The position numbers and the translations under genes are program-made. This document shows positions 4,755 through 63,211 of a stretch of DNA of 64,000 bases, in pieces. Where the stretch lies: positions 1-64,000 of the IMG/VR virus record IMGVR_UViG_3300037878_000134. One strand, written 5' to 3'. The DNA is from a virus. Its lineage: Duplodnaviria > Caudoviricetes. The notes beneath the pieces were generated by a model. It was given only the letters and a program-made list of their open reading frames with translations, had not been told where the DNA came from and searched no databases. Within the stretch, counting starts at the first letter, position 1. Every line of letters starts with the position of its first letter.

Positions 4755-4765
4755 GGAGATAAACC

Positions 4766-5206: not shown

Positions 5207-5214
5207 GAGCGCCC

Positions 5215-5613
5215 ATGCCCGACCCCACCATCCCCCCCACGAGCCCCCACGCCGCAGCGTCAGCCGCGATCGCGCGCCTGCCGAAGTTCACGTTCACGAT
5301 CCCGGAGGAAGAGCGGGGACTCGACACGGATCCGAAGACCATCACGATTCGCGAGCTGACCTACGGCGAGGAGCAGCAGGCGCAGCAAGCCGCCAGCGCG
5401 CACGGAACGACCGTGCTCAATGAGTCGGCCATGCGCTCCGTCGTGGCGGCGGACGACAAGCCCGTCACCTGGGAAAACGACGGCAAGGAGCGCTTCTATC
5501 AGACGCTCTCGAACAAGGCGCGCGAGCTCCTCATGCAGGCGTTCGTGGATATCGCCCTGCCCAAGCCGGAGGGGCGCAGGGCTTTTTTAGCGTCTCGAAA
5601 GACAACGCTCTAG
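5215..5613 (+). CDS. tail assembly chaperone (lambda gpG-like)
   Basis: Between tube and tape measure; ends just after a T TTT TTA slippery site. Confidence 0.75.
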   Translation: MPDPTIPPTSPHAAASAAIARLPKFTFTIPEEERGLDTDPKTITIRELTYGEEQQAQQAASAHGTTVLNESAMRSVVAADDKPVTWENDGKERFYQTLSNKARELLMQAFVDIALPKPEGRRAFLASRKTTL

Positions 5614-5768
5614 GGGAGGCACAAGAGCGACATTGGCGCAACATCGCGTACATCGCGCGGTACGGGCGCCAACCGCTTTCGGAGATCCTGGCGCTCACCT
5701 CACGGGAGATCGCTGCGTTCAGCGAAGGCCTCGCCTATTGGGTCAAGCTCGAAAACGGGGGCAAGTGA
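5583..5768 (+). CDS. -1 frameshift extension of the tail chaperone (gpGT-like)
   Basis: Slippery heptamer TTTTTTA at 5583-5589; -1 frame open to TGA 5766-5768 (FSVSKDNALGEAQERHWRNIAYIARYGRQPLSEIL...), ending 3 nt before the tape measure start. Confidence 0.8.
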   Translation, partial: FFSVSKDNALGEAQERHWRNIAYIARYGRQPLSEILALTSREIAAFSEGLAYWVKLENGGK

Positions 5769-5771
5769 TCC

Positions 5772-7607
5772 GTGGCTGATGTTGGCGGCGATCCCAATCG
5801 CGAAGTTGCCATTGCCTTCACGGTCAAGGGCGACGCCGAGCAAAAGGCTAGCGGGCTAGCCCGCGCCTTCGCCGGCGTGCACCGGGCGGCCGACGCGGCC
5901 AAGGCACGCGTGAACGAAGTGGGTCGCAGCTTCGTGGTGGGCGCCGTTGGGGCCGCGGGGCTGACCCTCGGTCTGCGTGAGATCTGGGCGCAGTCGAAGG
6001 AAGTCAACTTGTCGATGGACGCGATGCAGAAGCGCATCGCGGGCTCCACCTTCGCGTTTGCGACCTGGAAGAAGGGCACGACCGGGCTCGAGAAGTGGCG
6101 CGAGTCCATGCGGGACGGCGTCGAAATCACCGAGAAGCTGGAGGGCGTGAGCCGCCGCCACAAGGTGTCGCGCGAGGAGCTGGTCGGGATCTACGCCAGT
6201 CAAGCGCAGATGAGCGAGCGCTACCGGCAGTCGCAGGCGCAGCAAATCGATTTCAGCGAGAAGCTGGCGGCCACCCAGAACGTGCTGGGCATCAGCGCCG
6301 AGGGCGCCGGCATGATGATCGCCCGAGCCGCGATGACCGGAGCGATTCAGCTCCGGACTCAGCTCGGGCGCCAACTGGCGGCCGGCGTCGGGGATCTGAA
6401 GGCCTTCAAACGCGCCTCGGAAGAAGTTCGTTTCGAGAAACTCAAGAAGGCGCTCGGCGACATGGTGCCGGCCTCGCAGGAGATGGGCAAGGGGATGAAG
6501 GGGGCACTCTTCGACTTGAAGGAATTCGGCGAGGAGGGGCTGCGGGATCTGACACGACCGATGTTCAGCCAGCAGACAAAGTCCCTGCGCGACTGGGCGG
6601 CCAACCTGACGAAGATTCGGGACGACGGCCAAAGCATCGTGGCCACGTACGGGGAGAAGCTCGCCAAGGCGTTCACGACCATCAAGGATGTCTCCGGCTC
6701 CATCGCGCAGCACTGGAAGCTCATCGCGGGCCTGTTCGTCGCGGGCAAGCTCGGCGGGATGGCGGGCGGGGCCATCCGGGCTTTCACCGCGCCCGCCGCA
6801 GGCGCAGGAGCCGCCGGCCTCTTGGGGGGCGGAACGGTCGGCAGCATGAGCATCCAGGCCGCCAACGTCGTGGTCAACTCGGCCGGCATGGGTGGCGCGA
6901 TCGGGGCCGCCACCAGCGCCGGCGTGACCAAGGCGACCTCCGGCGGGCTCGCGCGCTTCGCCAGCGGGCTCGCGGCGGGCGCCAGCAAGGCCTTCATCGC
7001 GGCCGAAGCCGTGGGGGCTTTGGCGGTTGCCGCGGCGGCCTGGGTTGACGAGTGGCAGACCGGAAAACTCAAGCAGCAGCAGGTGGCGCCCGTTCAGACC
7101 ATGAACGCCTTGCACGCCGGCATCACCGCCATGAAGACCGGGGGCGAGGAGCAGGCGCGGCACCTCAAGGGAGTCTCGGAAGCGTTCGGCCTCAAGGCTG
7201 GCCAGCACGTATCGGCCGCCGCCATCGAGGCCGGGCTGCGAACCATGCCTCTGACCGAAGCGCAGAAGCTGGCGCGCGGCTATGGGTTTTCGGGCCAGGT
7301 CTCGGCCAACGCCATGGGGGAATTCGCTCCCCACGTGGCTGCGCAAATTGCCAAGAACCTGAATGATCTCATCGATCAAGCCATGAAGGCGCACGGCGCG
7401 GCCTTCAAGGAGACCGAAGAGAAGTCCAACAAGGAGAAAGCCGCCCGGGCGGCCCCAGTCACCAACATCGGCGTAGTCAATCTCACCCAGGACTTCAAGG
7501 CCGACGATCCCGAGCGCATCTTCCACCGGGCGGCACGCGAGATGGTCTCGGAGCTCAACCAGCTCCATCAGCACCCCGACCACTCCCCCGCGGCGAGGCA
7601 CACCTAA
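5772..7607 (+). CDS. tape measure protein
   Basis: 611 aa, Ala/Gly-rich and helical; canonical position after the chaperones. Confidence 0.8.
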   Translation: MADVGGDPNREVAIAFTVKGDAEQKASGLARAFAGVHRAADAAKARVNEVGRSFVVGAVGAAGLTLGLREIWAQSKEVNLSMDAMQKRIAGSTFAFATWKKGTTGLEKWRESMRDGVEITEKLEGVSRRHKVSREELVGIYASQAQMSERYRQSQAQQIDFSEKLAATQNVLGISAEGAGMMIARAAMTGAIQLRTQLGRQLAAGVGDLKAFKRASEEVRFEKLKKALGDMVPASQEMGKGMKGALFDLKEFGEEGLRDLTRPMFSQQTKSLRDWAANLTKIRDDGQSIVATYGEKLAKAFTTIKDVSGSIAQHWKLIAGLFVAGKLGGMAGGAIRAFTAPAAGAGAAGLLGGGTVGSMSIQAANVVVNSAGMGGAIGAATSAGVTKATSGGLARFASGLAAGASKAFIAAEAVGALAVAAAAWVDEWQTGKLKQQQVAPVQTMNALHAGITAMKTGGEEQARHLKGVSEAFGLKAGQHVSAAAIEAGLRTMPLTEAQKLARGYGFSGQVSANAMGEFAPHVAAQIAKNLNDLIDQAMKAHGAAFKETEEKSNKEKAARAAPVTNIGVVNLTQDFKADDPERIFHRAAREMVSELNQLHQHPDHSPAARHT

Positions 7608-11996: not shown

Positions 11997-12790
11997 TGCC
12001 GCCCCTCGTGCTCTTTCAGATGGTCCGGGCGCTTTCGGTAGGGGGCCAGGTGGTGCGCGTGGTGTTCAACGCGGAGCCCAAGCACAAGAGCCCCGCGGCC
12101 TCTGACGATGCCCTGAACGGCTCGAACTACCAGGTGAGCGTTATCGCCGGCCAAGGCCAGCCCCCGCAGTCGGTCGGGGTGCACCCGGATGTCATCCCGT
12201 ACCCGGCCTTCGGCGTGTGGAGCAACCTAGAAGTCGCGGTGGATCTGCAGACCGATCGCCCTTTGGTCGTCGGGCTGCGCTACCGCGTGCTGGTGTCGTC
12301 CGCAATGGTCGCCCAGGACGGGCGCCAGCTCGCGCCGCCCTATACCTGGGAATTCGACGGGGAGGCTCGGCCCATCGTCACCCTGCAGCAGCGGGGCAAG
12401 ATGGGCCTCGTGGATCTGGCGAGCGATCCCGTCGGCGGCGGCATCATGGTCGACAGCTCGGGTGACTGGACCGCCGACAACGGCGACACGGTGGGCACCC
12501 GCAAGCGGTGCTTCCGGCGCGTGCTCACCCGCAAGGGCGGCTTCGCGCACCTGCAGAGCTACGGCCTCGACTACGACGTCAAGCAGCCCGCCACGACCAA
12601 CAGGCTCGCCGGTCTGCGCAGCGATATTCAGGCGGGCCTGCAGCAGGAGCCAGACGTGGACTCCGTCGCCACCCAGGTGAGCATGGATAGCCGGGGCTTT
12701 CTCACCCTCGGCATGCGGGTCAAGACCAAGCAGGGAATCAACGTCCCCGCGGTTCTGTCCGTTTCCGAGAATGGAGTCACTGTCCGATGA
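11996..12790 (+). CDS. baseplate wedge protein (gpW/gp25-like C-terminal domain)
   Basis: C-terminal RRVLTRKGGFAHLQSYG...IQAGLQQEPDV resembles gp25. Confidence 0.65.
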   Translation: MPPLVLFQMVRALSVGGQVVRVVFNAEPKHKSPAASDDALNGSNYQVSVIAGQGQPPQSVGVHPDVIPYPAFGVWSNLEVAVDLQTDRPLVVGLRYRVLVSSAMVAQDGRQLAPPYTWEFDGEARPIVTLQQRGKMGLVDLASDPVGGGIMVDSSGDWTADNGDTVGTRKRCFRRVLTRKGGFAHLQSYGLDYDVKQPATTNRLAGLRSDIQAGLQQEPDVDSVATQVSMDSRGFLTLGMRVKTKQGINVPAVLSVSENGVTVR

Positions 12791-13893
12791 ACCAATTCGC
12801 GACCAGAGCTGACCTGTTTCAGGTGAGTCGAGCAGCCATCGCGGCCACCCCGAACATCAAGATAAACCCCTCGGTGATCGATGTTCCCGGATCCGACTTG
12901 AACCTGGTTGTGGGCGTGCCCTCGGTCATGGGCGAGGAAGTCTCGGCCCGGGCCGCCATGGCACTGCGGGGAGCGTTCGCCGAGCTGGCGCGCGGCTCCG
13001 CGCTCGATCGGGTGCTGTTTGATCGCTACGGCCTGCTGCGCTTCTCCGCCCAGCCGGCGACGGTTGACCTCGTGTTGTCGCGCCCAGGACCAGGGCTGCT
13101 GACCGGCACCATCGACGCCGGATCGGTTATCCAGACTCCCGATGGCGTCCAGTTTGCTCTCGACAACGAGCTCACGTGGGGCTCTGGCGAGCTGGGCATC
13201 ACGACGCCCGGGACCGCGCTCGTCAATGGCTCGGGCGGCAACGTGGTTGCGGGGACCGTTACCTCGTGGGCCACCGCGCCCTTTGACCCGTCGATTGTAG
13301 TCACCAATCCCTTGCCGGCCTCGGGCGGCATTGATGCCGAAGACGACGTGCAGTTTCTCGGGCGGGCTCGCGGCTTCTTCCCCACCGTCGCACGTGGAAC
13401 ACTGCGAGCCATCGAGTTTGGCGCGAAGCAAGTCCCCGGTGTCGCAGTAGCCACCGCGACCGAGATCGTGAACCCGTCGAATGGCTATCCGGCGGCGTTC
13501 GTGCAGCTCGTGGTCGGTGATCAGCAAGGCAATGCCTCCTCAGCGCTCCTCACCAAGGTCGCCAACGCACTGCTGGCGTATCGGGCCGCCGGGATCTACG
13601 TCCAGGTCATTGGCGGTATCGTGCTTGCACAGGCGGTCCACTGGTTGCTGACCTTCGTGGCCGACACGGACGAGGCGCTGGCCATATCGCGCATTCAGGC
13701 GGTAACCGTGGCGGTCGCCCAGTTCCTGGCCCCTGGCGCGCCCCTGCTGCGCGCCTCGCTCATCAGCGCCGCGGCCAGTGTGCCCGGCGTCATAGTGAGC
13801 GATCGCTCGCTGGCCTACCCGGCGGGCGACGTGGTCCCGAGCAGCGGAAATCAGATGATCCGCGTAGCCATGGGGGATGTGACTTTCGCGTGA
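12787..13893 (+). CDS. baseplate J-like protein
   Basis: 368 aa; ATVDLVLSR...GGIDAEDDVQFLGRA...GTLRAIE motifs of gpJ. Confidence 0.85.
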   Translation: MNQFATRADLFQVSRAAIAATPNIKINPSVIDVPGSDLNLVVGVPSVMGEEVSARAAMALRGAFAELARGSALDRVLFDRYGLLRFSAQPATVDLVLSRPGPGLLTGTIDAGSVIQTPDGVQFALDNELTWGSGELGITTPGTALVNGSGGNVVAGTVTSWATAPFDPSIVVTNPLPASGGIDAEDDVQFLGRARGFFPTVARGTLRAIEFGAKQVPGVAVATATEIVNPSNGYPAAFVQLVVGDQQGNASSALLTKVANALLAYRAAGIYVQVIGGIVLAQAVHWLLTFVADTDEALAISRIQAVTVAVAQFLAPGAPLLRASLISAAASVPGVIVSDRSLAYPAGDVVPSSGNQMIRVAMGDVTFA

Positions 13894-15569
13894 CCACCCA
13901 GCCCCTCTCCCAAGCGGATCTGCTCGCGTTGCTGAGGCGCATCTGCGACCCGGGGTGGCTATCAGGCATGCTCGCCCAGCCCGACGGCCAGGCCATCATC
14001 AACGCCTGGCTCGCCGCGTTCGAAGCGACCAGCGTGGCAGTCTGTAGGCAGGTCGACGCCTCGATGATCTCGACGGCGCCCACCGGGTCACCGGGAGTTT
14101 GCACCCTGGTGCTCTCCCGGGCCGATACGACCGTCGACGACTACATCCTCCAGGGCTACACCTTCGTGACGAACCTGGGCGTGCAATTGGTGGTCGCGAC
14201 CCAGGTGCACGTCCTGGCCGGTCAGGCGACGGTGGCGTTGCCGCTCCTCACTCTTCGGCAGACGGACATCGTCAACACGGTCGAGCCGGCCTTCGATGAC
14301 GTGCTGAATCCCGGCGATTACCTGGAGCCCATTCTCGGCAGCGCCGACCCGTCGTGCGTGTTCTTCGACGCTCCCCACAACGCGGGCACGCTGACCTACG
14401 TTTCCTCGACCCCCATCACCGGCGCCACGGATGACTGGCTGTCGGCCCATGGCGAGGAGCGCGGCTGCAAGCGCCAGGAAGGCGAAGACGGGGAAGCCTA
14501 CCGCGCGCGGGTGCGGCTCCTGCCCGATGCGGTCAGCCCGCGGGCCGTTGCCAGAGCCCTGGACGGCGCTTGCCAACTGCTGCCAGAAAGATGGCTGGTG
14601 GAGCCGTTCGGGGACGGCGCCGATCCCCTTGTGCGGCTGGCCTTGCAGCTCGGCCGGTTCGACGTTCCGGCGTGCGACATGTGCGGCGAGACCATCACGC
14701 TCAGCGCGGCGCCCGCCACCGATTGGGCACCCGGAGACGTCATCACGGGCCAGACCAGTGGCGCTAGCGCTGTCGTGGTGGCAGAGGCCTCGATCCTGCT
14801 CTACTACATCAAGCAGCGCAGCGGGGCCTTCGCGCTCGGCGAGACGGTTGGCGTGACCGGCGTGCCCGCCAAGCTGGCAACTCAGAACGGCTCCCACCCC
14901 ATCGTCTCCCAGATCCCTTCCGGTTTCTGCGACGACTGGCTGGGCGATCCCGTACCCGACAAGCAGCCCATCGCGACCTGCGAGATGGAGGGCCTCCGGG
15001 AAAGCCGCGCCTACGTGCGGGTCGACTTGTTTGGCGATCTGCAAGATCCCGATGGCTCCGTGCTGTACTGCGATGATGGCGGGTACTGCGATGACGAGCT
15101 CTGGGGGTATCCCGACATCGAGGTCCATCCGGCGATCGGCGCGGCCAGCAAGGCGCTGCTCGATGAGCTTCGGGGCAAGCTCGCGGCCGGCGTGCAGTGG
15201 GACATCTATCTCGAGAACGGAACTCAGCTTGCCGCCTACGACTTCATCGCCGGCCCCACGGGGCCACTCGGGGTTCCCGTGTGGAGCTTGGCGGCGCCGC
15301 CCGGCAAGGCCTGGTACATCAAAGAGGGCCTGCTGACTGTTGTGAGCCTCGATCCGACCGAGGCCATGCAGGTGATCCTGACCTTGGCCGATGCCAGTCA
15401 GATCATCAGCCCCTGGACAAGTGGCGCCTTTCCCCTTCGGACCTTTGAGCTTGCCAAGCTCGGCTACTGCGGACAACCCGTCGTCCAGATCGACGCCTGG
15501 GCAAGGTTGTCCGGTCCGCTCGCCCTGAACTTACAGGGTAATTTCGACGCAATTCAGGCTACCCTCTGA
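13890..15569 (+). CDS. baseplate wedge protein (gpI-like, extended); contains the protospacer of CRISPR spacer 5
   Basis: Follows gpJ; HGEERGCKRQEGEDGEAYRARVR motif; 15320-15353 is identical to 54126-54159. Confidence 0.65.
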   Translation: MTTQPLSQADLLALLRRICDPGWLSGMLAQPDGQAIINAWLAAFEATSVAVCRQVDASMISTAPTGSPGVCTLVLSRADTTVDDYILQGYTFVTNLGVQLVVATQVHVLAGQATVALPLLTLRQTDIVNTVEPAFDDVLNPGDYLEPILGSADPSCVFFDAPHNAGTLTYVSSTPITGATDDWLSAHGEERGCKRQEGEDGEAYRARVRLLPDAVSPRAVARALDGACQLLPERWLVEPFGDGADPLVRLALQLGRFDVPACDMCGETITLSAAPATDWAPGDVITGQTSGASAVVVAEASILLYYIKQRSGAFALGETVGVTGVPAKLATQNGSHPIVSQIPSGFCDDWLGDPVPDKQPIATCEMEGLRESRAYVRVDLFGDLQDPDGSVLYCDDGGYCDDELWGYPDIEVHPAIGAASKALLDELRGKLAAGVQWDIYLENGTQLAAYDFIAGPTGPLGVPVWSLAAPPGKAWYIKEGLLTVVSLDPTEAMQVILTLADASQIISPWTSGAFPLRTFELAKLGYCGQPVVQIDAWARLSGPLALNLQGNFDAIQATL

Positions 15570-39959: not shown

Positions 39960-40112
39960 CTGTTTCGACGTCACTACCCCGAAAGGAAAGCAATTGTCTG
40001 ACATGACCACACAGGCGCTTACGGAACAGTCGCGCAGTTGTGGAGAAGTTGTTGATTGGGACACACTCGGCGCCCCAGTCGCTTTCTCTTACCGCTCGAT
40101 CCTGGTTGCCGG

Positions 40113-40571
40113 ATGAAATCATCACTGAAGAAAACGGCCCCGAACCTCATCACTGCCGCCCAGTTCGCGCGGATCCTCTCCCACACGCCCTTGGCGACAT
40201 TCCGGGTGCTGCTCCTGCTCTTGTGGGACACGGGCATGCGTGTCGGCGAGGCACTCCCTTTGCGCCGGGTGCAGTTTTCCCGACGGGGAAACGGCGGAGG
40301 AGCAATCGAGCTTGGGCCCGACAGGAAGACCGGGCGAGCGCGGACGGTGTTTCTCACGAGACGCGCCGCCAAAGCACTCGAATCCTTGCCCGATCGCGGG
40401 CCCTACTTTTTCTGTGGGCGCGACGGCGAGCCGCTCGGCTACACGTACCTGTACAGAATCTTCGCAGTCGCCGTCAAAAGGGCAAAAGTGCCGTGGGCTC
40501 CGGGCCTGCACACACTGAGGAAGTCCGCGTTCTACCGGATGACTCACCACTCGATCCTGGTTGCAAAATGA
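40113..40571 (+). CDS. internally deleted duplicate of the adjacent integrase
   Basis: N-terminal KSSLKKTAPNLITAAQ fused directly to FARILSH...DTGMRVGE...HTLRKS; lacks the core-binding domain and the catalytic His/Tyr. Confidence 0.75.
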   Translation: MKSSLKKTAPNLITAAQFARILSHTPLATFRVLLLLLWDTGMRVGEALPLRRVQFSRRGNGGGAIELGPDRKTGRARTVFLTRRAAKALESLPDRGPYFFCGRDGEPLGYTYLYRIFAVAVKRAKVPWAPGLHTLRKSAFYRMTHHSILVAK

Positions 40572-41656
40572 AGCCGAAATCATCGCTCAGCAAAACAGAT
40601 CCCAACCTCATTGCCGCCGCTCAGCTGCTCCTGTCCCACGTCCAGGACCAACTGGAGGAATCGCCGACCATAAAGGACTTGTGGGAGAAGTATTTCGCCT
40701 CGGAGGGACAGCATCTCCGTAGTGCAGATAGACTGAGCGCGGCCTGGAAGTTCTTTCACGCGATCCGTGGCACCGACGGCATCCCGTTCGAGAAGCGCCA
40801 GGCGCTCACGATCGATAATGCCGTCATCGAAGAATTCCGGGCGGCCATGCGCATATCGCCGCTCAGCGGCCGTGCGACCAAGCCGGCGACCCGAAACCGA
40901 ATGCTAAGCGTGGTTCAGCGCGTGCTCCACTGGTCGCATCAGAATGGCCTGATCTCGCACATGCCGATTGCGGGAGTCCACCTCGAAGCGGAGCACAACA
41001 TCCCGAAGACAAAATTGCGCACGGACGAGGAATTCGGGCGGATCCTCGCCCACATACCGGTAGCGACGTTCCGAGTGCTGCTTTTGCTGCTTTGGGATAC
41101 CGGTATGCGTGTCGGCGAGGCTTTGAAACTGCGGCGGGTGCAATTCTCCCCACGCATTAACGGGGGTGGAGTCGTCGAGCTCGGGCGCGACGAAACCAAG
41201 ACCGGGCGAGCGCGGACCGTGTTTCTCACGAGACGCGTCGCCAAGGCGCTCGAATCCTTGCCCGATCGCGGGCCCTACTTTTTCTGCAAGCCCAATGGCG
41301 GCACCTTCAGCTACGCCTATCTGTACAGGATATTTGCGTTGGCGGCCGAGAGGGCGAAGTTGCCCTGCGCTCCCGGCGAGACGATCCACCTGCACACGCT
41401 CAGGCATTCCGCGCTCTACCGGATGCGGACGCTCTGCCACTGGCCCCAGCAGCTCTGCATGCGCCAGTCCGGTCACACGACAACCAGCGCGTTTTTTCGC
41501 TACGGCATCGCTGACGAGCAGGAGATGACCACGGCCATGGACACGTATGAAAGCGTGCTTCAGGGCCGACTCCCACCGCGACCAGCGCACAACCCCCACG
41601 CGATGGAGAGCACGGAAGACTTGGCAAACGCAGACGTACTGGCCGCTCAAAAATAG
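40568..41656 (+). CDS. int: tyrosine recombinase/integrase
   Basis: DTGMRVGE (R), TKTG (K), HTLRH (HxxR), SGH (H), FRYG (Y). Confidence 0.9.
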   Translation: MKPKSSLSKTDPNLIAAAQLLLSHVQDQLEESPTIKDLWEKYFASEGQHLRSADRLSAAWKFFHAIRGTDGIPFEKRQALTIDNAVIEEFRAAMRISPLSGRATKPATRNRMLSVVQRVLHWSHQNGLISHMPIAGVHLEAEHNIPKTKLRTDEEFGRILAHIPVATFRVLLLLLWDTGMRVGEALKLRRVQFSPRINGGGVVELGRDETKTGRARTVFLTRRVAKALESLPDRGPYFFCKPNGGTFSYAYLYRIFALAAERAKLPCAPGETIHLHTLRHSALYRMRTLCHWPQQLCMRQSGHTTTSAFFRYGIADEQEMTTAMDTYESVLQGRLPPRPAHNPHAMESTEDLANADVLAAQK

Positions 41657-41842: not shown

Positions 41843-42236
41843 TTGCCAAAGCCTGCTCAGGGGGCCCTGCCTTGAGACGGACTCGACTGCTTGCCGAGCA
41901 CGGCTCAGACCGCCTCACAACGCTTGCTCAGGGAGCTACGCCTTGAGACATGCTGCCACATCCTGCAGCCATCCCGGCCCCGATGGGTCGCAACGCCCGC
42001 TCAGGGGGCCCTGCCTTGAGACGTACTGGACTGCTTGGCCAGCATGGCCCGGCCCGCACCACAAAGCCTGCTCAGGGGGCCATGTCTTGAGACACCGAAT
42101 AGGTGATCTCGTGGTGCGCCGGATGGTCGCGCGCAACGCCCGCTCAGGGGGCCCTGCCTTGAGACAGTCGACCTGGCCGTCCATCATCGCAGCCGCGGCA
42201 GCTCCTAATGCCCGCTCAAGGGGCCACGCCTTGAGA
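41843..42236 (+). CRISPR. satellite CRISPR array 2: 6 variant repeats, 5 spacers
   Basis: Repeats at 41843, 41914, 41987, 42058, 42130, 42202 share the core GCTCAGGGGGC-NNN-GCCTTGAGAC; spacers 35-37 nt. Confidence 0.88.
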
Positions 42237-42484
42237 TCCGCAGATGTGGCAGTGAGAGAGGCGGAGTTGAGTGCTGTTTTTCAGCACAAGATAAAGTGCA
42301 TTCGGACTGCATTTGGTCAAATGCCGAAAATAGCACTCTACTTTCCTCTACAACTCCGCGAATTCATTGGGGCCAGCCGCGGATGGGGTCGCCGATGCGG
42401 TCCCGCACATCAACTGCGCAGGGGCGATGCAAGGCCCCCAATTCTTCGCCCGCTCGCCCGCGCGCTGGCTATCATCGACAGAAC

Positions 42485-42558
42485 TGCAGGGTCGCCAAGT
42501 GGACAAAGGCTCCAGGCTCATAACCTGGCATTCGTGGGTTCGACTCCTACCCCTGCAA
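42485..42558 (+). tRNA. tRNA with CAT anticodon (Met or Ile2), no encoded CCA
   Basis: Acceptor TGCAGGG/CCCTGCA; D-arm; CCAGG-CTCATAA-CCTGG; T-arm GTGGG-TTCGACT-CCTAC. Confidence 0.88.
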
Positions 42559-42724
42559 CTGCCTTAACGCTCTCTTTCCTGGCTGGGGGAAGCGCAGGCA
42601 ACAAAGGGCAACGGCTAGGTGGGGCTCCGCGGGGGCCTGAATGGTCCGCCCGCCCACATTGTGGAAAGTCCCTATCAGCGCTCCGGCCCGCGGCCGCCGC
42701 TGGGGGCAGCGAGAGCTCGTGGTC

Positions 42725-47910: not shown

Positions 47911-48891
47911 ATGACCAAACTCGGTCCGTATCCCATTCCGAGCTATCAGGTCGGCGACTGCCGCGAGCTGCTCGCGAAGCTGCCGGATGAGTGCATCGAC
48001 TGCGTGGTGAGTAGCCCCCCCTACTGGGGGCTTCGCTCATACCTACCAGAAGGAGATCCGCACAAGCACATCGAGCTTGGGACCGAGCGGACCTATCCGC
48101 AGTACGTTGAGAAGATGCGCGCGGTGTTCGAACAGGTCCGTCGTGTCCTCAAAGCCGAGGGCACGCTGTGGTTGAACCTCGGTGACTGCTACGCGACCGG
48201 CGCTGGCGCCGTGGGAGAATGCCCAGGTGGGGGAGAACAGGGCGCGCGATGGAAAGGGAATCGCGCGACCCGCACGGGGGCGAATAGCGAGAAGCATGAA
48301 CCAGCGCTGGCGCAGATGGGACCACTTACCCAACCGAACCGGATGCCTCAGCCTGGACTCAAGCCCAAGGACTTGGTGGGCATTCCTTGGCGCGTAGCCT
48401 TCGCGTTGCAGGCTGATGGCTGGAGGCTTCGTTCGGACATCATCTGGTCGAAGCCCAACCCGATGCCGGAAAGCGTGCAAAGCCGCCCGACCAAGGCGCA
48501 CGAGTACCTTTTTCTCTTTTCCAAGGCGGAGTCCTATTACTACGACAGCGAATCCATCGCGGAGCAGGCGGTCAGGGCGGGGTCTATCCCCGGAGGCGGT
48601 GGTGGCCATGAGGCGGTTGGGGCCAAGCGCAATCGGCGCTCCGTCTGGACGATCCCAACCGAGCCTACGTCAGAAGCACACTTCGCGACCATGCCGACCA
48701 AGCTGGTCCAGCCCTGCATTCTGGCCGGGTGCCCCGCTGGCGGAGTAGTTCTCGATCCCTTCGGGGGCAGCGGCACGGTCGGGCGCGTAGCCGAGGACCA
48801 CGGGCGGCTGTGGCTGCTGTTCGATCTCAGCCCGGCTTATGCCGAGATCGCGAAGCGCAGGACCGCCCAGACCTCTCTTCTTCGGGGTTGA
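47911..48891 (+). CDS. DNA N4-cytosine/N6-adenine methyltransferase (beta class)
   Basis: VVSSPPYWG; VLDPFGGSGTV. Confidence 0.9.
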   Translation: MTKLGPYPIPSYQVGDCRELLAKLPDECIDCVVSSPPYWGLRSYLPEGDPHKHIELGTERTYPQYVEKMRAVFEQVRRVLKAEGTLWLNLGDCYATGAGAVGECPGGGEQGARWKGNRATRTGANSEKHEPALAQMGPLTQPNRMPQPGLKPKDLVGIPWRVAFALQADGWRLRSDIIWSKPNPMPESVQSRPTKAHEYLFLFSKAESYYYDSESIAEQAVRAGSIPGGGGGHEAVGAKRNRRSVWTIPTEPTSEAHFATMPTKLVQPCILAGCPAGGVVLDPFGGSGTVGRVAEDHGRLWLLFDLSPAYAEIAKRRTAQTSLLRG

Positions 48892-50927: not shown

Positions 50928-52024
50928 CAAAGACCAGCATTTCCTGGTGTCTCGGTCCCGACGGCGCGCCGGGCTTTTCGTGGAACCCCGTCGTAGGATG
51001 CTCGCCTGTCAGCGCCGGGTGCGCGCACTGCTGGGCCGCTCGCCTGGCCAGCACGCGGCTGGCACACTTGCCCGAGTACAAGGGACTGACCGAGCCAACG
51101 GTCATAATGTCCGCCAACCCGCCCGGAAGTGGCCCGGGCCCGTCAATCTGGACCGGCCAGACCCGCTTCCTGCCCGACCGCCTAGGCGAGCCGCTGCGCA
51201 GACGGCAGCCATCGGGGATCGCGGTGGGGCTGATGGGTGACATCGGCCATCCGACGATCCGAGATGTTGATAGGTTCCGCATCTGGCTAACGATGGCCAG
51301 GGCTTTTTGGCATCAGTTTTTCGTCCTCACGAAGAGACCGGCAGAGCTTTCGCGCTTCATTGAGCGATGGTGCAGCGTAGAGGAGGACACCTTGGAGCCT
51401 CGGCTAGTGCGGGGCCCAGAAGAGGTCAGACGATGTTACCGGAGTGAGCGGGCCAGACTCTTCGCCGACATGCTCGAAGGGATGGGAGAGCCTCCGCCTG
51501 GAGCTGCCTACCCGACGTTTGACTGGATGGAGGGCCCGAGGTGGTTCGAGGCGATCTTGGCCAACGTGGCGATCGGCGTCTCCATCGAGGACCAGGCCAC
51601 GGCGAATGACCGCATGCTGGAGCTAGAAGAAACGCCGGCCGCCTTGCGCTTTATCTCGGCAGAGCCGCTTCTCGAGGATCTCCAGCGCATCGACTTGAGC
51701 GGGATTTCGTGGGTGATCGTCGGGGGAGAATCAGGGCCCAACGCCCGGCCATGTCACGTTGATTGGATCCGCTCCGTCATCAGAGAGTGTCGCGAAGCAG
51801 GCGTTGCCTGCTGGGTGAAACAACTCGGCACGAACTGCGTGGACCGCAACGACGCTGGTTTCGACGGGGCCGAAGGCGAATGGCCAGCAGGCACACGAAC
51901 CCGAGGCAGCGAGAGGTTTCAGGGCGCGCCGGTGCACATTCGCTTCCGCGACCGCGCCGGTGCCGACCCGTCCGAATGGCCCGAAGATCTCAAAGTGAGA
52001 CAAACGCTGGAGGCTCGCCGATGA
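50924..52024 (+). CDS. DUF5131 (phage Gp37/Gp68) family protein
   Basis: SISW...WNPVVGCSPVSAGCAHCWA; LTKRP; FISAEPLL; WVIVGGESG; CWVKQLG. Confidence 0.85.
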   Translation: MTKTSISWCLGPDGAPGFSWNPVVGCSPVSAGCAHCWAARLASTRLAHLPEYKGLTEPTVIMSANPPGSGPGPSIWTGQTRFLPDRLGEPLRRRQPSGIAVGLMGDIGHPTIRDVDRFRIWLTMARAFWHQFFVLTKRPAELSRFIERWCSVEEDTLEPRLVRGPEEVRRCYRSERARLFADMLEGMGEPPPGAAYPTFDWMEGPRWFEAILANVAIGVSIEDQATANDRMLELEETPAALRFISAEPLLEDLQRIDLSGISWVIVGGESGPNARPCHVDWIRSVIRECREAGVACWVKQLGTNCVDRNDAGFDGAEGEWPAGTRTRGSERFQGAPVHIRFRDRAGADPSEWPEDLKVRQTLEARR

Positions 52025-53838
52025 AACGAAAAACTAGTCACCTACCGACCCGGATCTACAGCTACGGCTGCCGCCTCCCAACCGAGGGGGCGCAGATCAT
52101 CGAAGAGCAGCTCAAGCTCGCCCGCGTCTATCACAACAAGCTCTTGGAAATTGAGCTTGCGCGACGGGCGGCCGTGAGGACGGCGATGGCGTCCTGCCCT
52201 GACGTGGCGACGGCCGCAGCGGAGGTTGCGGAGATCGATCAAAAAATCGAGGCCGAACGCGTGGTGATCAAGGCAGCTCGGCAGGCGGCTCGATCCGGGG
52301 CGGTCGATGTGCGGGCGAACAAAGAGCGATTGAAAGAGCTCTTCGTGGAAGTCAAGGCCGCGCGGCAAGCCCTCAAAGCGGCAAAGACCGCCAGCCGTAC
52401 CCCGCAGATGCTGGCGAAATTCAAGTCGGCCCAGGAGACGGCAAACCAAGCCGTGCGCGACGCGCGCGCGATCTGCGGCGTGTACTGGGGTACATACTTG
52501 CTGGTCGAGCAGGAGATCGAGGCAGCCCGCAAGAGCAAGACGGATCCCCAATTCCGCCGGTGGACCGGCACAGGACGCATCGGCGTCGAGTTGATGCACG
52601 GCCTGTCAGTTGCCGATCTCATGGCCGGGAAAGACACTCGGCTGCAGATCCACATGACCCCGGGCGCAAGCAAGCGGAGCCAGAGCATGGCCGTGGTCCG
52701 GATCCGCGTGGGATCCGCCGGTCGCGATCCAATCTGGGCCGCGCTCCCGTTCCGCCTGCACCGCCCCTTGCCAGCCGACGGCCGGGTGAAGTGGGCTTGG
52801 ATTCATCGCACGTTCAAGGGCCGGTGGGTCAACTGGGATCTGCAGATCGTACTCGAGGCCGCCTCATTCGCGGTGCCTGAACGCCCAGCCCACGATGGCG
52901 GCGTGGTGGCGCTCGATCTGGGCTGGCGCGCGCGACAGTCTACTGCGGGCGATGGTTCGCAGACCATTCGGGTCGGCTACTGGTGCGACGACCGCGGCCA
53001 GCACGGCGAGCTTGTTATGCCGGCCGATCTCAAGGGCCGCCTGGAGCACGCCAACAGTCTGCGGGCAATCGAAGACCGCAACTTCGACGCCGCGAAAGCG
53101 CGATTGATAGAATGGCTCAAGGAGCACACAGCTCCGGAGGGCATAGATCTGGCGAATCTCGCGGCCTGGAAATCCGCGAAGCGGTTGGGTCGGACGGTGT
53201 CCGAATGGGAGAATCTGGGCGAGGTGCCCTGCGACTTGCTGGCCTGGTGGAAGCAGCATCGCCACCTCTACGATTGGGAAAGCTCGGAAAGGGCCCGCGC
53301 GCTGAACGCTCGGAAGAACCACTACCGGAACATCGCCGCGCAACTCACGACTACCTACGCCGTCTTGGTGCTCGAAGACTTCGACATGCGCGGCGTGGTC
53401 GAGCTGAACCAGCCCGAGCACAAGGAAGACGATGCGGTCAAGCCCGCCCGGCGCAACCGGGTGTTCGCGGCGCCGTCGGAGTTTCGCCTGGCGCTCAAGT
53501 CGGCCGCGCCGCTGCGCGGTTGTCGCATCGCCGAATTGGCCTGCGCGTTGACAACCCAGCCCTGCCACGTGTGCGGAGAGAGCGAGCGGTGGGACGCGGC
53601 GAAGTCTGTCTGGCACACGTGTCGCAACGGGCACCAGTGGGATCAGGATTACAACGCGGCTCGCAATCTACTCGGTGTCTACGCGAGCGGCGATGCGCTG
53701 AAGCGCGAACCCCCGTCGGACAGAGGGAAAAAGAGCGACGAAAAACCGAGCCTCGCGCACACGGAGGTGCAAGATAGCGAAACCACGGGCGAATCTCTGG
53801 TGCCCGTTGCAATGCCTGCTCAGGGGGCTGTGCCTTGA
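52021..53838 (+). CDS. cas12m: compact type V CRISPR effector, Cas12m-like (V-U1/V-M), 605 aa
   Basis: RuvC-I VALDLGWR (D299), RuvC-II LVLEDFD (E452), Zn finger CHVC..CRNGH, RuvC-III DQDYNAA (D543); long N-terminal helical insert; abuts a CRISPR array. Confidence 0.82.
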   Translation: MKRKTSHLPTRIYSYGCRLPTEGAQIIEEQLKLARVYHNKLLEIELARRAAVRTAMASCPDVATAAAEVAEIDQKIEAERVVIKAARQAARSGAVDVRANKERLKELFVEVKAARQALKAAKTASRTPQMLAKFKSAQETANQAVRDARAICGVYWGTYLLVEQEIEAARKSKTDPQFRRWTGTGRIGVELMHGLSVADLMAGKDTRLQIHMTPGASKRSQSMAVVRIRVGSAGRDPIWAALPFRLHRPLPADGRVKWAWIHRTFKGRWVNWDLQIVLEAASFAVPERPAHDGGVVALDLGWRARQSTAGDGSQTIRVGYWCDDRGQHGELVMPADLKGRLEHANSLRAIEDRNFDAAKARLIEWLKEHTAPEGIDLANLAAWKSAKRLGRTVSEWENLGEVPCDLLAWWKQHRHLYDWESSERARALNARKNHYRNIAAQLTTTYAVLVLEDFDMRGVVELNQPEHKEDDAVKPARRNRVFAAPSEFRLALKSAAPLRGCRIAELACALTTQPCHVCGESERWDAAKSVWHTCRNGHQWDQDYNAARNLLGVYASGDALKREPPSDRGKKSDEKPSLAHTEVQDSETTGESLVPVAMPAQGAVP

Positions 53839-54825
53839 GACCATCAACGACGGGACCGTCGAAAAGATCGGCGAACGTTGCAATGCCTGCTCAGGGGGCT
53901 GTGCCTTGAGACCATCGGCGTGGCCAGGTTCGTCCGAGTGAGTGACGGTTGCAATGCCTGCTCAGGGGGCTGTGCCTTGAGACACGGGCGGGCAGAACAG
54001 CCCACGGGCGCGAGGAGTTGCAATGCCTGCTCAGGGGGCTGTGCCTTGAGACTTCTTGGGGGTGCCGGGGGGAGCATTCCCCTTCCCGGTTGCAATGCCT
54101 GCTCAGGGGGCTGTGCCTTGAGACACAAAGAGGGCCTGCTGACTGTTGTGAGCCTCGATGTTGCAATGCCTGCTCAGGGGGCTGTGCCTTGAGACAGCCA
54201 CCGTTGCCGCCGCTCCCACCGCCGCCCGGTTGCAATGCCTGCTCAGGGGGCTTTGCCTTGAGACCCCGAATTGCTGGAGGCCGGCCCGGATCGGATCGTC
54301 CACCTGGAAATGCCTGCTCAGGGGGCAATGCCTTGAGACTGCCCGACCTTTGCCCGCCAGATCGCAAAGCCTGCGCAAGGGGCTGTGCCTTGAGACCAGA
54401 AGTCGAGTGCATCGAGGTGGGCAGTAGGTCGTTGCAATGCCTGCTCAGGGGGCTGTGCCTTGAGACACCACCAACTATTTCGTGGGGCCGGATCCCGCAG
54501 GGTTGCAATGCCTGCTCAGGGGGCTGTGCCTTGAGACGTCCATGTCCGATTGGTACCAAGACCGACCGACACGTTGCAATGCCTGCTCAGGGGGCTGTGC
54601 CTTGAGACACCTCCCCGCTCAGCTTGCTCGCTGTTTCGTCCAGTCTCTCAACGCCTGCTCAGGGGGCCACGCCTTGAGACACGATGTAGTGGGAATCGCC
54701 CAGCCGCACGGCCTCCGACCCGCAACGCCCGCTCAGGGGGCTATGCCTTGAGACCAGCGTGCGACTGCTGCCAGTCGGGCAGCTTCCTGCTCAGAAAGCC
54801 TGCTCAAGGGGCTACGCCTTGAGAC
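53806..54825 (+). CRISPR. main CRISPR array: 15 repeats, 14 spacers
   Basis: 36-bp repeat GTTGCAATGCCTGCTCAGGGGGCTGTGCCTTGAGAC at 53806, 53877, 53948, 54017, 54089, 54160, 54229, 54304, 54361, 54431, 54502, 54573, 54645, 54719, 54790; spacers 33-39 nt (one of 21 nt). Confidence 0.97.
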
Positions 54826-54859
54826 GTGTACTCCGCGTCGTAGCCAAAGGAGATTGATC

Positions 54860-56479
54860 ATGACCGACGACAAGCAACCCGAGTTGACTGAGGCCAAGCG
54901 CGAGCCGCGCAGCCACGATTTGAAGTGCTGGCCCCCTCAGTTCGACGCGCTCATGGATGGCACAAAGACACACGAGGTGCGCGTTGATGATCGCGGCTAC
55001 CAAGTTGGGGATCTGTTGGTGCTTCACGAGTGGGATCCGAACGGAAAGGAGTATTCTGGCCGCGAGATTCGCCGGGTAGTTTCTCACGTCACATCGGGAG
55101 GATCCTTCGGATTGCCTCCGGGCTTGGTGGTTATGAGCGTGAAGCCCGACATCGAGCACGGCCCCCGCCTGTCTGATGCGGAGCTACTCGGAAGCGTCGA
55201 TGCCGCCGTGTGGGCTCGTGAATTTTGCAAGACCTGGCGACAGGTCGTCCACCCCGATCAGCCCTGCCCGGACGAAGGCTGGATGATCGCCTGGTTTGCG
55301 AATGCGATGATGGCGATGCACGATCACGTCGAACCGAAGCACGAGCAGCAGGACTCTTCCGCGCCCACGTCAGGCGACGCGGAGATGGCGCGCAAGTGCC
55401 TTGATGCTGGCAGAGCAGCACGGCGTCTGACTCCAATCGAGGACAAGGTTTGGGATAGCCAAGTGAGCGGGTGGGCTACGGCCATGTTCATCGAGGCTCG
55501 CCGCCTCCTCGAGGTCGATGCGCTGCGGGCCGAGAACACGCGAATCTCCGACCATCTGGCGCGCCTCCTCGCCCGTATCGACGACTTCGAGCGACTCCAC
55601 CAGGCGGACCAGGAGCGCATCGCCTACCTGGAGCATGAGCTGGCGATACTGCCGGCACCACGTCCACGAATTGTCTGTCTCTGCGGGTCCACGCGCTTCT
55701 ATCAGCAGTTCAAGGAGGCGAACTACCGCGAGACGATGGCCGGGAAGATCGTGCTGTCGGTGGGGTTCTACCCGCACGCCCAGGTACAAGAACACGGACA
55801 GCATCTCGGCGTAACCGCCGAGCAGAAGGTCGCCCTCGACGAGCTCCACAAGCGCAAGATTGACTTGGCTGACGAAGTCTTGGTGCTCGACGTTGGTGGG
55901 TACATCGGGGAATCGACCAAGAGTGAGATTGAGCACGCCAAGAGAGCCGGGAAGCCAATTCGATACCTGAGCGCCCAAAGCGCGCCCTCGGGAGCGCTCC
56001 GGGCCGAACAAGCCATCGGCGTCGCGTTGTCGGTGGTCATGTGCAAGACCGAAATGGGAGAATGCCAGGAACTGGCCCCCGGTTTCCTTCGGCACTTGGC
56101 AGCCATGGGATGGACACTGGCGCCAGTGCAAGAACAAACCGCTGCTCAGGCGCTCGCGAAGGTGACGCTGGCAATCGGCTCTCAGCGGCTCGCCATCCAG
56201 GAAGACTTCATCAAGGCGTTTGTCGAAGAGACCGGGGCTAAGATTGCGGACTGCGTGCTGAAAGAGGAGATCAAGGACGGGAAAATCTCGTGGTGGCTGG
56301 AGCATCGGCCCACGCCGAAGGCCCAGCCTCCCGAGGTCTACGTCGGGTTGGATCTTGGCAACAAGGCCTTGGACAACGTCGCGATTGGCGTGTCCATCGG
56401 AGAGAGGCACCCATCTGCTCCCGCGGAACCGCTGACCGCGTCGGCGCCGAACGTTCGCCTACCCGGAGAAAAGGAATGA
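54860..56479 (+). CDS. mosaic protein: DUF3850 (PUA/ASCH-like) plus a nucleoside-deoxyribosyltransferase-like domain
   Basis: HDLKCWPPQFDALMDGTKTHEVRVDDRGYQVGD; CLCGSTRF...HKRKIDLADEVLVLDVGGYIGESTKSEIEHA. Confidence 0.65.
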   Translation: MTDDKQPELTEAKREPRSHDLKCWPPQFDALMDGTKTHEVRVDDRGYQVGDLLVLHEWDPNGKEYSGREIRRVVSHVTSGGSFGLPPGLVVMSVKPDIEHGPRLSDAELLGSVDAAVWAREFCKTWRQVVHPDQPCPDEGWMIAWFANAMMAMHDHVEPKHEQQDSSAPTSGDAEMARKCLDAGRAARRLTPIEDKVWDSQVSGWATAMFIEARRLLEVDALRAENTRISDHLARLLARIDDFERLHQADQERIAYLEHELAILPAPRPRIVCLCGSTRFYQQFKEANYRETMAGKIVLSVGFYPHAQVQEHGQHLGVTAEQKVALDELHKRKIDLADEVLVLDVGGYIGESTKSEIEHAKRAGKPIRYLSAQSAPSGALRAEQAIGVALSVVMCKTEMGECQELAPGFLRHLAAMGWTLAPVQEQTAAQALAKVTLAIGSQRLAIQEDFIKAFVEETGAKIADCVLKEEIKDGKISWWLEHRPTPKAQPPEVYVGLDLGNKALDNVAIGVSIGERHPSAPAEPLTASAPNVRLPGEKE

Positions 56480-60423: not shown

Positions 60424-60531
60424 CTCGAAATGCCTGCTCAGGGGGCTATGCCTTGAGATTGGCTATCTGGACGCTGCCAAAGACGGGGGCATGCTCTCGC
60501 AAAGCCCGCTCAGAGGGCCATGTCCTGAGAC
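60424..60531 (+). CRISPR. satellite mini-array 3: 2 variant repeats, 1 spacer
   Basis: CTCGAAATGCCTGCTCAGGGGGCTATGCCTTGAGAT (60424-60459), 36-nt spacer, CTCGCAAAGCCCGCTCAGAGGGCCATGTCCTGAGAC (60496-60531). Confidence 0.8.
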
Positions 60532-61771: not shown

Positions 61772-63211
61772 ATGAGCACCCTGAAGTCCGAGCGCATCAC
61801 ATCCCTGGTTCCCGATCCGGCGAACCCGCGACGCATGACTGACGAAGCGACGGCGGGCCTGGCGCGCAGCATGGAGCGCTTCGGGGCTCTGGACATCGTC
61901 TTCAACCGCCGGACGAAACAGCTGGTGTCCGGGCATCAGCGCGTGGCGGCGCTCAAGGCCGCGGGCGCGAAGAGCATCCAGCGGAGCGGCGACTGGGGCT
62001 TCATCCTGCACCCGAAGACCAAGGAGCGCTTCCCGGTGCGCTACGTCGACTGGACGCCCGAGGAGCAGCGCATCGCGAACATCACCGCCAACAACATGAA
62101 CATCATGGGCGCGTTCCAGCCGCTGGTGCTGGAGCAGCTCGACGCGCTCAAGCTGGACGCGGACTTCGGAACGCTGCAGCTCGATGCGCTTCAGGTGCAG
62201 CAGTGGGAGAGTCAGCCCGAGCCCGACAGGAAGGATGGCAACTGTGACCCCGACGAGGTGCCCGAGCCCCCCGCCGAGCCGGTCTCGAAGCGCGGCGACC
62301 TGTGGATTCTGGGCGAGCATCGGCTGCTATGCGGCGACTCCACGCAGGCTGAGGATGTGGCGCGCCTTCTCGGCACCGAAAAGCCTCACTTGATGGTCAC
62401 TGACCCCCCCTATGGAGTGAAATACGATGCCGAGTGGAGAGACGAGGCCGCGAAACATTGCGCATCGATGGGCAACAGGAAAGATAGCGCGCTTGGGCGA
62501 GTCGCGAATGACGAGCGAGCAGACTGGCGCGAGGCCTGGGCACTCTTCCCCGGAGATGTTGGCTATGTGTGGCATGCAGACCTGCATGCCACGGAGGTGC
62601 TCGGATCCTTAGTGGCCGCTGGATTCAAGGCGCGCTCTCAGATCATTTGGGCCAAGAGCCACTTGGTCATCGGGAGAGGCGATTATCATTACCAGCACGA
62701 GCCTTGTTGGTACGTTGTGCGATCCGGCAAGACCGGGCACTACAACGGCGACCGGACGCAAACGACGCTTTGGCAGATAGCCAAGCCGCAGAAGTCAGAG
62801 ACCGGCCACAGCACGCAGAAGCCAGTGGAATGCATGTCACGGCTCGTCGCGAACAATTCCAAGCGCGGTGAGTCCGTTTATGATCCATTCTGCGGCAGCG
62901 GCACCACGATCATCGCCGCCGAGATGCACGGCCGACGCTGCTTCGCCATGGAACTGGAGCCCCGCTATGTGGACGTAGCCGTAGCCCGATGGGAGAAGTT
63001 CACGGGCAAGGCCTCGGTGCTGGCGAGCACGGGTCAGCGGCTATCGGAGCTGAAAGCCGGCGGGCGACGCCGGGCCAAGGGCAATAGCCGGCACGAAGAC
63101 GAGCGGGATGCAGCCATCGCCCGCGAACGGCTGGTGGAGATATCCGAGCACCCTGAGCGCGTAGTCAGCGGGACGGAAGTTGAATCCATCCTGGAAGCCA
63201 AGGCGCGGTAG
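61772..63211 (+). CDS. ParB-like domain fused to DNA N6-methyltransferase
   Basis: PDPANPRRM...GHQRV; HRLLCGDST; TDPPYG; YDPFCGSGTT. Confidence 0.9.
   Translation: MSTLKSERITSLVPDPANPRRMTDEATAGLARSMERFGALDIVFNRRTKQLVSGHQRVAALKAAGAKSIQRSGDWGFILHPKTKERFPVRYVDWTPEEQRIANITANNMNIMGAFQPLVLEQLDALKLDADFGTLQLDALQVQQWESQPEPDRKDGNCDPDEVPEPPAEPVSKRGDLWILGEHRLLCGDSTQAEDVARLLGTEKPHLMVTDPPYGVKYDAEWRDEAAKHCASMGNRKDSALGRVANDERADWREAWALFPGDVGYVWHADLHATEVLGSLVAAGFKARSQIIWAKSHLVIGRGDYHYQHEPCWYVVRSGKTGHYNGDRTQTTLWQIAKPQKSETGHSTQKPVECMSRLVANNSKRGESVYDPFCGSGTTIIAAEMHGRRCFAMELEPRYVDVAVARWEKFTGKASVLASTGQRLSELKAGGRRRAKGNSRHEDERDAAIARERLVEISEHPERVVSGTEVESILEAKAR

Follow-up and report, generated by a model that had tools for sequence, protein, structure and literature searches.

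Subtype V-M of the CRISPR systems is built around Cas12m, a protein of about 600 amino acids (aa) in which a WED domain, a REC1/REC2 coiled coil, a split RuvC domain and a Zn-ribbon TNB domain are combined, as known from MmCas12m2 (8hhl/8hio), GoCas12m (8pm4), MsCas12m, PmCas12m and the protein of PDB entry 23vw. The characterised representatives employ a single CRISPR RNA (crRNA) without a trans-activating crRNA (tracrRNA), the 36-nt repeat of which forms a two-helix pseudoknot ending in GAGAC, are accompanied by no other cas genes and reside on a mobile element, this being a plasmid. V-M loci are typically devoid of adaptation genes and of other cas genes (PMC10691335). Phage or prophage Cas12m has already been reported in a 2024 review (PMC11656645), and the temperate myxophage MV-1, which encodes a 610-aa Cas12m with a D-E-D active site and an 8-spacer array in the absence of cas1, cas2 and cas4, has been called the first phage Cas12m (bioRxiv 10.64898/2026.09.14.751636). 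In the current work we analyse a locus of this kind in the IMG/VR record IMGVR_UViG_3300037878_000134, the stretch under study (“the window”) being the first 64 kb (64,000 nt) of a record of 80,138 bp. The record represents a complete, integrase-bearing tailed phage genome of ≈80 kb and of peat origin, in which a 605-aa open reading frame (ORF), here designated cas12m, runs into a 15-repeat array (Table 1). At the level of the sequence and of the predicted fold, this locus displays all the V-M features listed above, except that it is carried by a complete tailed phage and not by a plasmid.

The cas12m ORF almost certainly encodes a full-length Cas12m of subtype V-M, this placement being based on four independent tests, namely sequence comparison, a curated hidden Markov model (HMM), the predicted fold and the architecture of the crRNA repeat. 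The start codon, located 9 nt downstream of a GGAGG motif, is considered to be called correctly since homologues begin at the same MKRKTS..PTRIY. A phmmer comparison with PDB sequences retrieved 23vw, whose PDB name is “CRISPR-associated DNA-binding protein Cas12m”, with an E value of 1.7e-70 (242 bits, residues 13-557), followed by weaker matches to Cas12m2 (8hhl, 2.5e-23), GoCas12m (8pm4, 2.5e-17) and UnCas12m4a (4.7e-15). The Cas12u1 model of PADLOC (V-U1 being the former name of V-M) matched with an E value of 1.4e-97 over profile positions 3-527 of 533, while Pfam recognised the TNB domain alone and the NCBIfam TnpB model NF040570 reached 34 bits, its cut-off being 100.

Next to these sequence matches, an AlphaFold2 model was built from 35 homologues (mean predicted local distance difference test score, pLDDT, 84.4; predicted template modelling score, pTM, 0.75), in which the tail 561-605 is the only disordered part and long helices occupy residues 24-151. 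When compared with the PDB by means of Foldseek, this model placed four Cas12m entries on top, with E values from 4e-31 to 2e-24. Those of them that are complete complexes (8hhl, 8hio and 8pm4) had template modelling (TM) scores of 0.74-0.80, the scores of 8hhl and 8pm4 being 0.77-0.80 over ≈600 columns; the next families were Cas12f (E ≈1e-12, TM ≈0.4) and TnpB (8h1j, E 2e-8, TM ≈0.4). The REC1/REC2 coiled-coil insertion, the split RuvC domain and the TNB Zn ribbon are all present in the predicted model. PADLOC, phmmer and Foldseek therefore agree in favouring Cas12m over Cas12f and TnpB. The likeness to the TnpB proteins of IS200/IS605 elements resides in the RuvC and TNB core and in a guide scaffold that overlaps the protein gene at its 3’ end, the omega-RNA overlapping the end of tnpB as repeat 1 does the end of cas12m; the locus differs from them by its REC2 insertion, by a true 15-repeat array in place of a single scaffold, and by having neither TnpA nor transposon ends.

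A previous inspection of the same DNA, made from its letters alone (the sequence-only reading), had proposed a Cas12m-like system on the basis of a split RuvC within the 605-aa ORF, an ATGA overlap with the upstream DUF5131 gene, a directly adjoining 15-repeat array, six motif pairs in common with MmCas12m, a Cas12m-type repeat architecture, and flanks lacking cas1, cas2 and insertion sequence (IS) elements. Each of these elements was recovered: the catalytic residues D299, E452 and D543 could be located, the overlap is present in the sequence (cgccgATGAaac, in which the TGA of the DUF5131 gene overlaps the cas12m ATG), the array not only adjoins the ORF but extends into it, and all six motif pairs can be traced in the HMMER alignment with 8hhl. 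Cas1, Cas2, Cas4 and Y1 TnpA were not found anywhere in the whole 80-kb genome, and the same holds for the clustering with IS200/IS605 TnpB that had been named as contrary evidence. V-M systems as a rule lack adaptation genes, and their absence here is not a peculiarity of this phage.

The RuvC triad is of the canonical D-E-D type, as in MsCas12m and in 23vw, the closest solved relative (read from the alignment), and as opposed to the H-D-D of MmCas12m2 and GoCas12m and the N-D-D of PmCas12m. It is kept in 28 of the 35 aligned homologues, the other seven carrying GPD, NPD (twice), DEN, NED or NDD. In the Zn finger the fourth Cys of the ribbon is replaced by N536, both here and in a relative (L002) whose Cas12m is 92% identical, this position being occupied by Cys in nearly all other aligned homologues; His532 or His537 may stand in for the lost ligand. 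This replacement, together with four dispersed arrays and 30 repeat variants, sets the phage system apart from the characterised V-M systems, to which sequence identity is low. A tblastn search with Cas12m yielded 17 PLSDB plasmids, the gene of the Allomeiothermus silvanus plasmid, which we take to be MsCas12m from the name of the organism, being 32% identical, and the best solved structure is that of 23vw. At least 170 homologues of the protein are present in databases, many of them on contigs of 70-110 kb bearing integrases and many small ORFs; among GTDB representative genomes a single distant homologue was retrieved, from a Deferribacteres metagenome-assembled genome (MAG), at 31% identity.

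Regarding the repeats of the main array, nine correspond to the consensus GTTGCAATGCCTGCTCAGGGGGCTGTGCCTTGAGAC and the other six deviate from it; the spacers measure 21-39 nt, most of them 33-36 nt. Repeat 1 overlaps the final 33 nt of the cas12m ORF, the last 11 codons with the stop being encoded there, and the stop codon is the TGA within the repeat end CCTTGAGAC. Because the cas12m stop is located in repeat 1, the array has no separate leader. This arrangement is kept in L002, L004, L013, L014 and L015, whose Cas12m proteins are 45-92% identical, L003 being the exception. By analogy with the characterised proteins, processing of repeat 1 by Cas12m would cut the cas12m mRNA upstream of its stop codon.

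Over the genome as a whole, a regular-expression search and an unfiltered covariance model agree on 38 repeats distributed over four arrays (main, A, C and D), all on the + strand. Thirty of these 38 repeats are distinct in sequence, arrays A and D hold no identical pair, and some units of array D are irregular, their spacers measuring 2, 12, 15 and 56 nt. Since hardly any change is seen in the pairing columns and in the GAGAC end while the unconstrained columns vary freely, this diversity points to selection for crRNA function and not to decay. Within array A a single sequence recurs in variant form as spacers 1 and 3 (local score 19 over 35 nt), which look like two guides for diverged versions of the same target.

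The structure of the repeat was derived from an alignment of 40 repeats from this phage and the relatives L002-L004, and consists of two helices (columns 9-11 with 21-23, and 14-20 with 28-34) in which 99.2% of the cells are paired. Compensatory changes occur at four pairs (GC/CG/AU at 9-23, CG/AU at 10-22, CG/UA at 11-21 and GC/AU at 20-28), pair 18-30 being altered on one side only (GU/AU/GC). The observed covariation score was reached by none of 500 shuffles, and slid controls collapse. Because helix 2 begins inside the loop of helix 1, the fold is a pseudoknot. Its geometry is the same as that of the Cas12m2 and PmCas12m crRNAs, in the structures of which C(-23)..C(-20) pair with G(-3)..G(-6) next to a 3-bp upstream helix, and the most variable columns fall among the first seven nt, which are disordered in the Cas12m2 structure. 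The support for this structure is covariation, single-sequence minimum-free-energy folding of the repeat being no better than that of shuffles. No anti-repeat was detected on the opposite strand by regular expression or covariance model in the whole genome, and therefore no tracrRNA is expected.

With regard to phage-borne relatives, MvCas12m of MV-1 resembles the present system in size (610 versus 605 aa), in its D-E-D triad, in the adjacent array, in the lack of cas1, cas2 and cas4, and in being carried by an integrase-bearing temperate phage, and the MV-1 spacers are likewise without found targets (bioRxiv 10.64898/2026.09.14.751636). It is nonetheless a different protein, as judged by the numbering of its catalytic residues, D305/E463/D555 as against D299/E452/D543, and MV-1 holds 8 spacers with one consensus repeat, compared with 14 main-array spacers plus three further arrays here. 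The host of MV-1 has been assigned to Polyangiales; the sole host hint for the present phage is a homologue of its spacer 5 target gene (see below) in a Polyangia MAG, which points towards a myxobacterial host. A further Cas12m homologue (tblastn, 35% identity, E 1e-70) is encoded by the 197-kb Virus Rctr197k (KX853510.1) from a DAMO enrichment, where it is annotated “similar to transposase”, its Cas12m nature being unrecognised there. Immediately behind it lies an annotated CRISPR region, the 36-nt repeat of which, ending in AGAAGCTCAGATCTTTGGGTTCTGAGAC, shows the same two helices and GAGAC end. Cas12j (CasPhi) of huge phages and the viral mini-arrays directed against kin are alike in combining phage-borne guides with a lack of adaptation genes, and inter-virus competition has been proposed for them. 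Cas12j, which cuts DNA, belongs to another branch (Foldseek E 1e-8 to 4e-7, TM 0.28-0.33), and mini-arrays depend on a host effector, whereas this phage encodes its own.

Considering the locus as a whole, the best explanation is a bona fide V-M Cas12m of a phage that silences rival mobile elements, which we regard as probable, if with some reserve; with respect to its function taken separately, and arguing from the characterised relatives, we lean modestly towards competition by binding. As these relatives do, Cas12m would cut the array transcript into crRNAs, each predicted to comprise most of a repeat and a guide of ≈17 nt. The Cas12m-crRNA complex would then bind matching double-stranded DNA (dsDNA) that has a protospacer-adjacent motif (PAM) at its flank, most likely without cutting it, and the bound complex would keep rival mobile elements, above all close phage kin, from being transcribed or replicated, thereby providing superinfection exclusion. 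New spacers would enter at the cas12m-proximal repeat by means of a host Cas1-Cas2 acting in trans.

This reading draws on two observations, one of which is array turnover. The relative L002, whose cas12m is ≈86% identical in DNA, has 8 repeats and shares with the present array only the terminal spacer, the last repeat and the trailer, all cas12m-proximal spacers being different. In both phages the cas12m-proximal repeats are identical to one another. This polarity is as expected from the addition of new units at repeat 1, presumably by a host integrase in trans.

The other observation is that spacer 5 matches the phage’s own genome at 34 of 35 positions, being the only one of the 34 spacers of at least 30 nt that does so above shuffled controls. 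The mismatch concerns the first position of the guide, where the spacer has A and the genome T, and the 5’ flank of the self-protospacer is TACA, as opposed to the T/C-rich PAMs known for Cas12m. The protospacer lies in an ORF directly downstream of the baseplate J/wedge gene that is tail-fibre- or baseplate-like. Homologues of this ORF combine a conserved N-terminal half (≈75% identity across numerous metagenome proteins) with a variable C-terminal one, in which some have Kelch repeats, a pattern that, as judged from these sequences, is typical of receptor-binding tail proteins. A 45-kb relative carries an orthologue that is 96% identical, with the same amino acids at the protospacer site. 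The simplest reading is that spacer 5 was taken from a very close relative, the phage’s own copy being shielded by the seed mismatch and by the absence of a PAM; the mechanism outlined above would thus spare the self-protospacer on account of the position-1 mismatch and an A-rich PAM position. The alternative is self-regulation of the target gene. Inter-phage competition or gene control had been put forward in the sequence-only reading, and that direction appears right in view of one spacer matching kin or self and of the turnover, although no external target was among the matches retrieved.

Several points weigh against silencing of rivals by binding. No spacer matches INPHARED phages or PLSDB plasmids beyond chance in blastn searches with the main array and with arrays A and D, the only matches being chance-level ones from a GC-rich, low-complexity spacer. 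Exact words of 22-25 nt from the self-protospacer, from spacers 1 and 3 of array A (in degenerate form), from main-array spacer 1 and from the terminal spacer gave no match in IMG/VR, nor was the exact self-protospacer word found in JGI metagenome contigs. When all 73 spacers of this phage and its relatives were compared with all fetched loci and with the related phage G001 (see below), nothing emerged besides the self match and the terminal unit that is shared. Neither a host nor a host Cas1-Cas2 fitting such a repeat was identified. The self-avoidance at 15319 is judged by the PAMs of other Cas12m proteins, which may not be those of this orthologue. In addition, conservation is higher in the terminal spacer than in the DNA around it, which is a better fit to a fixed regulatory guide than to adaptive immunity, and retention of D-E-D in most homologues suggests, as far as sequence conservation goes, that the active site is still in use and that cutting is possible.

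The first of these last two points leads to gene control instead of defence, a function in which Cas12m would be a programmable repressor of phage or host genes and the arrays, positioned in different units (after int, after cas12m, before packaging and within head genes), would deliver guides at different times. We judge this unlikely, while granting it more room than any of the alternatives discussed below. It would account for the terminal spacer, and also for the four same-strand arrays, in which 38 repeats of 30 variants retain near-invariant structural columns as under selection and not decay, for spacer 5 being directed at the phage’s own tail-region gene, and for the last repeat lying 34 nt ahead of the next start codon, that of the DUF3850/ASCH gene. 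The sole self match, however, has the position-1 mismatch and the TACA flank, and the cas12m-proximal spacers are wholly different between close relatives, as immunity predicts. The terminal spacer could be a fixed guide or a structure in the 5’ untranslated region of the next gene. As a separate observation, it holds a 6-bp hairpin (GCTGCC-AGTCG-GGCAGC).

A regulatory role retains a small share of probability in view of the four arrays with their diversified repeats, the location of the cas12m stop codon in repeat 1, a terminal guide that is conserved and a spacer that nearly matches self. In its most elaborate version, which we consider improbable, they would constitute a timed and programmable silencing network, in which one effector is served by four arrays in separate units, the diversified repeats resist recombination, some guides are fixed, mRNA cleavage provides autoregulation, and the D-E-D site is possibly of use.

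Silencing by binding must also be weighed against an active nuclease, i.e. a D-E-D Cas12m that cuts rival DNA like most Cas12 proteins. The intact D299, E452 and D543, the conservation of the triad within the clade and the MV-1 preprint, which suggests nuclease activity of its D-E-D Cas12m (bioRxiv 10.64898/2026.09.14.751636), agree with such an activity. Against this, Cas12m proteins of the D-E-D, H-D-D and N-D-D types bind dsDNA without cutting it and protect against phages and plasmids, the tested D-E-D Cas12m showing neither dsDNA cutting nor collateral activity, and pre-crRNA processing by Cas12m is independent of RuvC (PMC11013384). Reversion of H-D-D to D-E-D in Cas12m2 did not restore cutting (PMC10442227), 23vw is named a DNA-binding protein despite its D-E-D triad, and the sporadic triad losses scattered over the clade (GPD, NPD, NED, NDD and DEN) fit the “gradual inactivation” that has been described for V-M (PMC10691335). 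Cutting is for these reasons rather improbable.

Counter-defence, in which the guides would silence restriction or CRISPR loci of the host and so aid infection or lysogeny, corresponds to the way other phage CRISPR systems act (PMC11656645), but the sole recognisable protospacer is situated in a phage structural gene, and we attach very little probability to it. An IS200/IS605 TnpB with omega-RNA, or a functionless, decaying CRISPR remnant, to which recognition of TNB alone by Pfam, the weak NCBIfam TnpB match and the irregular repeats with spacers of 2, 12, 15, 21 and 56 nt might point, was rejected as next to impossible in view of the sub-threshold TnpB score, the lack of Y1 TnpA, a Cas12m fold and curated HMM that include the REC2 coiled coil lacking in TnpB, an intact ORF with a confident model, strong repeat covariation, and a gene-plus-array layout kept in relatives at 45-92% identity.

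That a phage can encode Cas12m in the absence of adaptation genes has already been published and is not a new finding; what the present locus adds is a well-documented, complete-genome case of a phage with its own non-adaptive and probably non-cutting CRISPR effector. It offers three experimental handles, the first being a compact D-E-D Cas12m that is distant from those characterised so far and probably recognises a different PAM, the second a natural guide with a known, near-perfect target, and the third the set of 30 natural repeat variants, which chart the crRNA positions that tolerate change. The locus furthermore bears on spacer gain by V-M arrays without Cas1-Cas2, and may bear on a possible origin of arrays from omega-RNA-like scaffolds overlapping the end of a gene.

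Table 1 Positions of the features discussed, in the numbering of the window unless another sequence is named.
Feature	Position	Strand	Remarks
cas12m, 605 aa	52021-53838	+	ORF; HMMER, PADLOC, AlphaFold2/Foldseek
RuvC residue D299	52915-52917	+	
RuvC residue E452	53374-53376	+	
RuvC residue D543	53647-53649	+	
Zn finger C515-H537	53563-53631	+	ligands C515, C518, C534
Main array	53806-54825	+	15 repeats of 36 nt, 14 spacers; covariance-model scores 51-56 bits
Spacer 5	54125-54159	+	own-genome match 34/35
Terminal spacer	54755-54789	+	35/35 identical in L002
Self-protospacer	15319-15353	+	in ORF 13890-15569
Array A	41843-42237	+	6 variant repeats; between integrase and tRNA-Met
Array A spacer 1	41879-41913		variant of the same sequence as spacer 3
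Array A spacer 3	42023-42057		variant of the same sequence as spacer 1
Array C	60424-60531	+	2 variant repeats, one 36-nt spacer
Array D	genome 71802-72792 (L005 7802-8792)	+	15 variant repeats; beyond the window
DUF5131 gene (phage Gp37/Gp68-like), 385 aa	50867-52024	+	Pfam PF07505, E 4.4e-57
Array trailer, then DUF3850/ASCH gene	54826-56479	+	ribosome-binding site AAAGGAG; ATG at 54860
Baseplate wedge/J protein	12787-13893		phrog_6, E 3e-27
Tyrosine integrase	40040-41656		
tRNA-Met	42485-42559		
N6/N4 DNA methylase	47911-48891		
ParB-like/methyltransferase fusion	61772-63211		phrog_498, E 6e-112
Virus Rctr197k locus	KX853510.1 109477-117168		gene at locus 2950-4818; annotated CRISPR at 4852-6366

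The genome in which these features are embedded has a GC content of 64.5% and is bounded by direct terminal repeats of 127 nt, its completeness being given as 100% by CheckV. PHROG matches elsewhere in it comprise the portal protein, a head morphogenesis protein and, weakly, the major head protein, and the tRNA was the sole match of an Rfam scan. The cas12m gene is situated inside an early/DNA-metabolism block, near which an AAA ATPase and a MUG113/T5orf172 protein are also encoded. The DNA methyltransferases of the phage, to which an MT-A70 gene corresponds in position on the 45-kb relative, probably serve against restriction, alongside the CRISPR module.

The order of the DUF5131 gene and cas12m is kept in L002 and on the 45-kb contig. 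No terminator-like site was found to separate cas12m from the DUF5131 gene or from the array, or the array from the DUF3850/ASCH gene, in a scan that was at chance level overall, and promoter and terminator scans around the cas12m locus and array A likewise yielded chance-level signals only. We infer that the DUF5131 gene, cas12m and the downstream array are co-transcribed.

Searches of IMG/VR with Cas12m and with the portal protein revealed no related locus, and the general repeat pattern gave six single matches there, none with an array or with cas12m. The sole relative found in IMG/VR is G001 (IMGVR_UViG_3300031344_000005), a complete phage genome of 82.8 kb with ≈65% nucleotide identity in the structural genes, which carries neither cas12m nor any of the repeats; the Cas12m system is therefore accessory in this phage lineage.

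The locus is present in four peat-metagenome runs, the Logan contigs of which are broken or collapsed within the array; no RNA run is listed among the sequencing runs that contain it. One X2 Logan contig joins 53804 to 54572 via a 37-nt repeat and would represent either a variant without 11 spacers or an assembly collapse, and because the two are indistinguishable this join is uninformative on array variants. Contigs of two of the runs span cas12m with zero differences, and the identical Cas12m protein is also recorded on an 80,081-bp contig (Logan/ENA).

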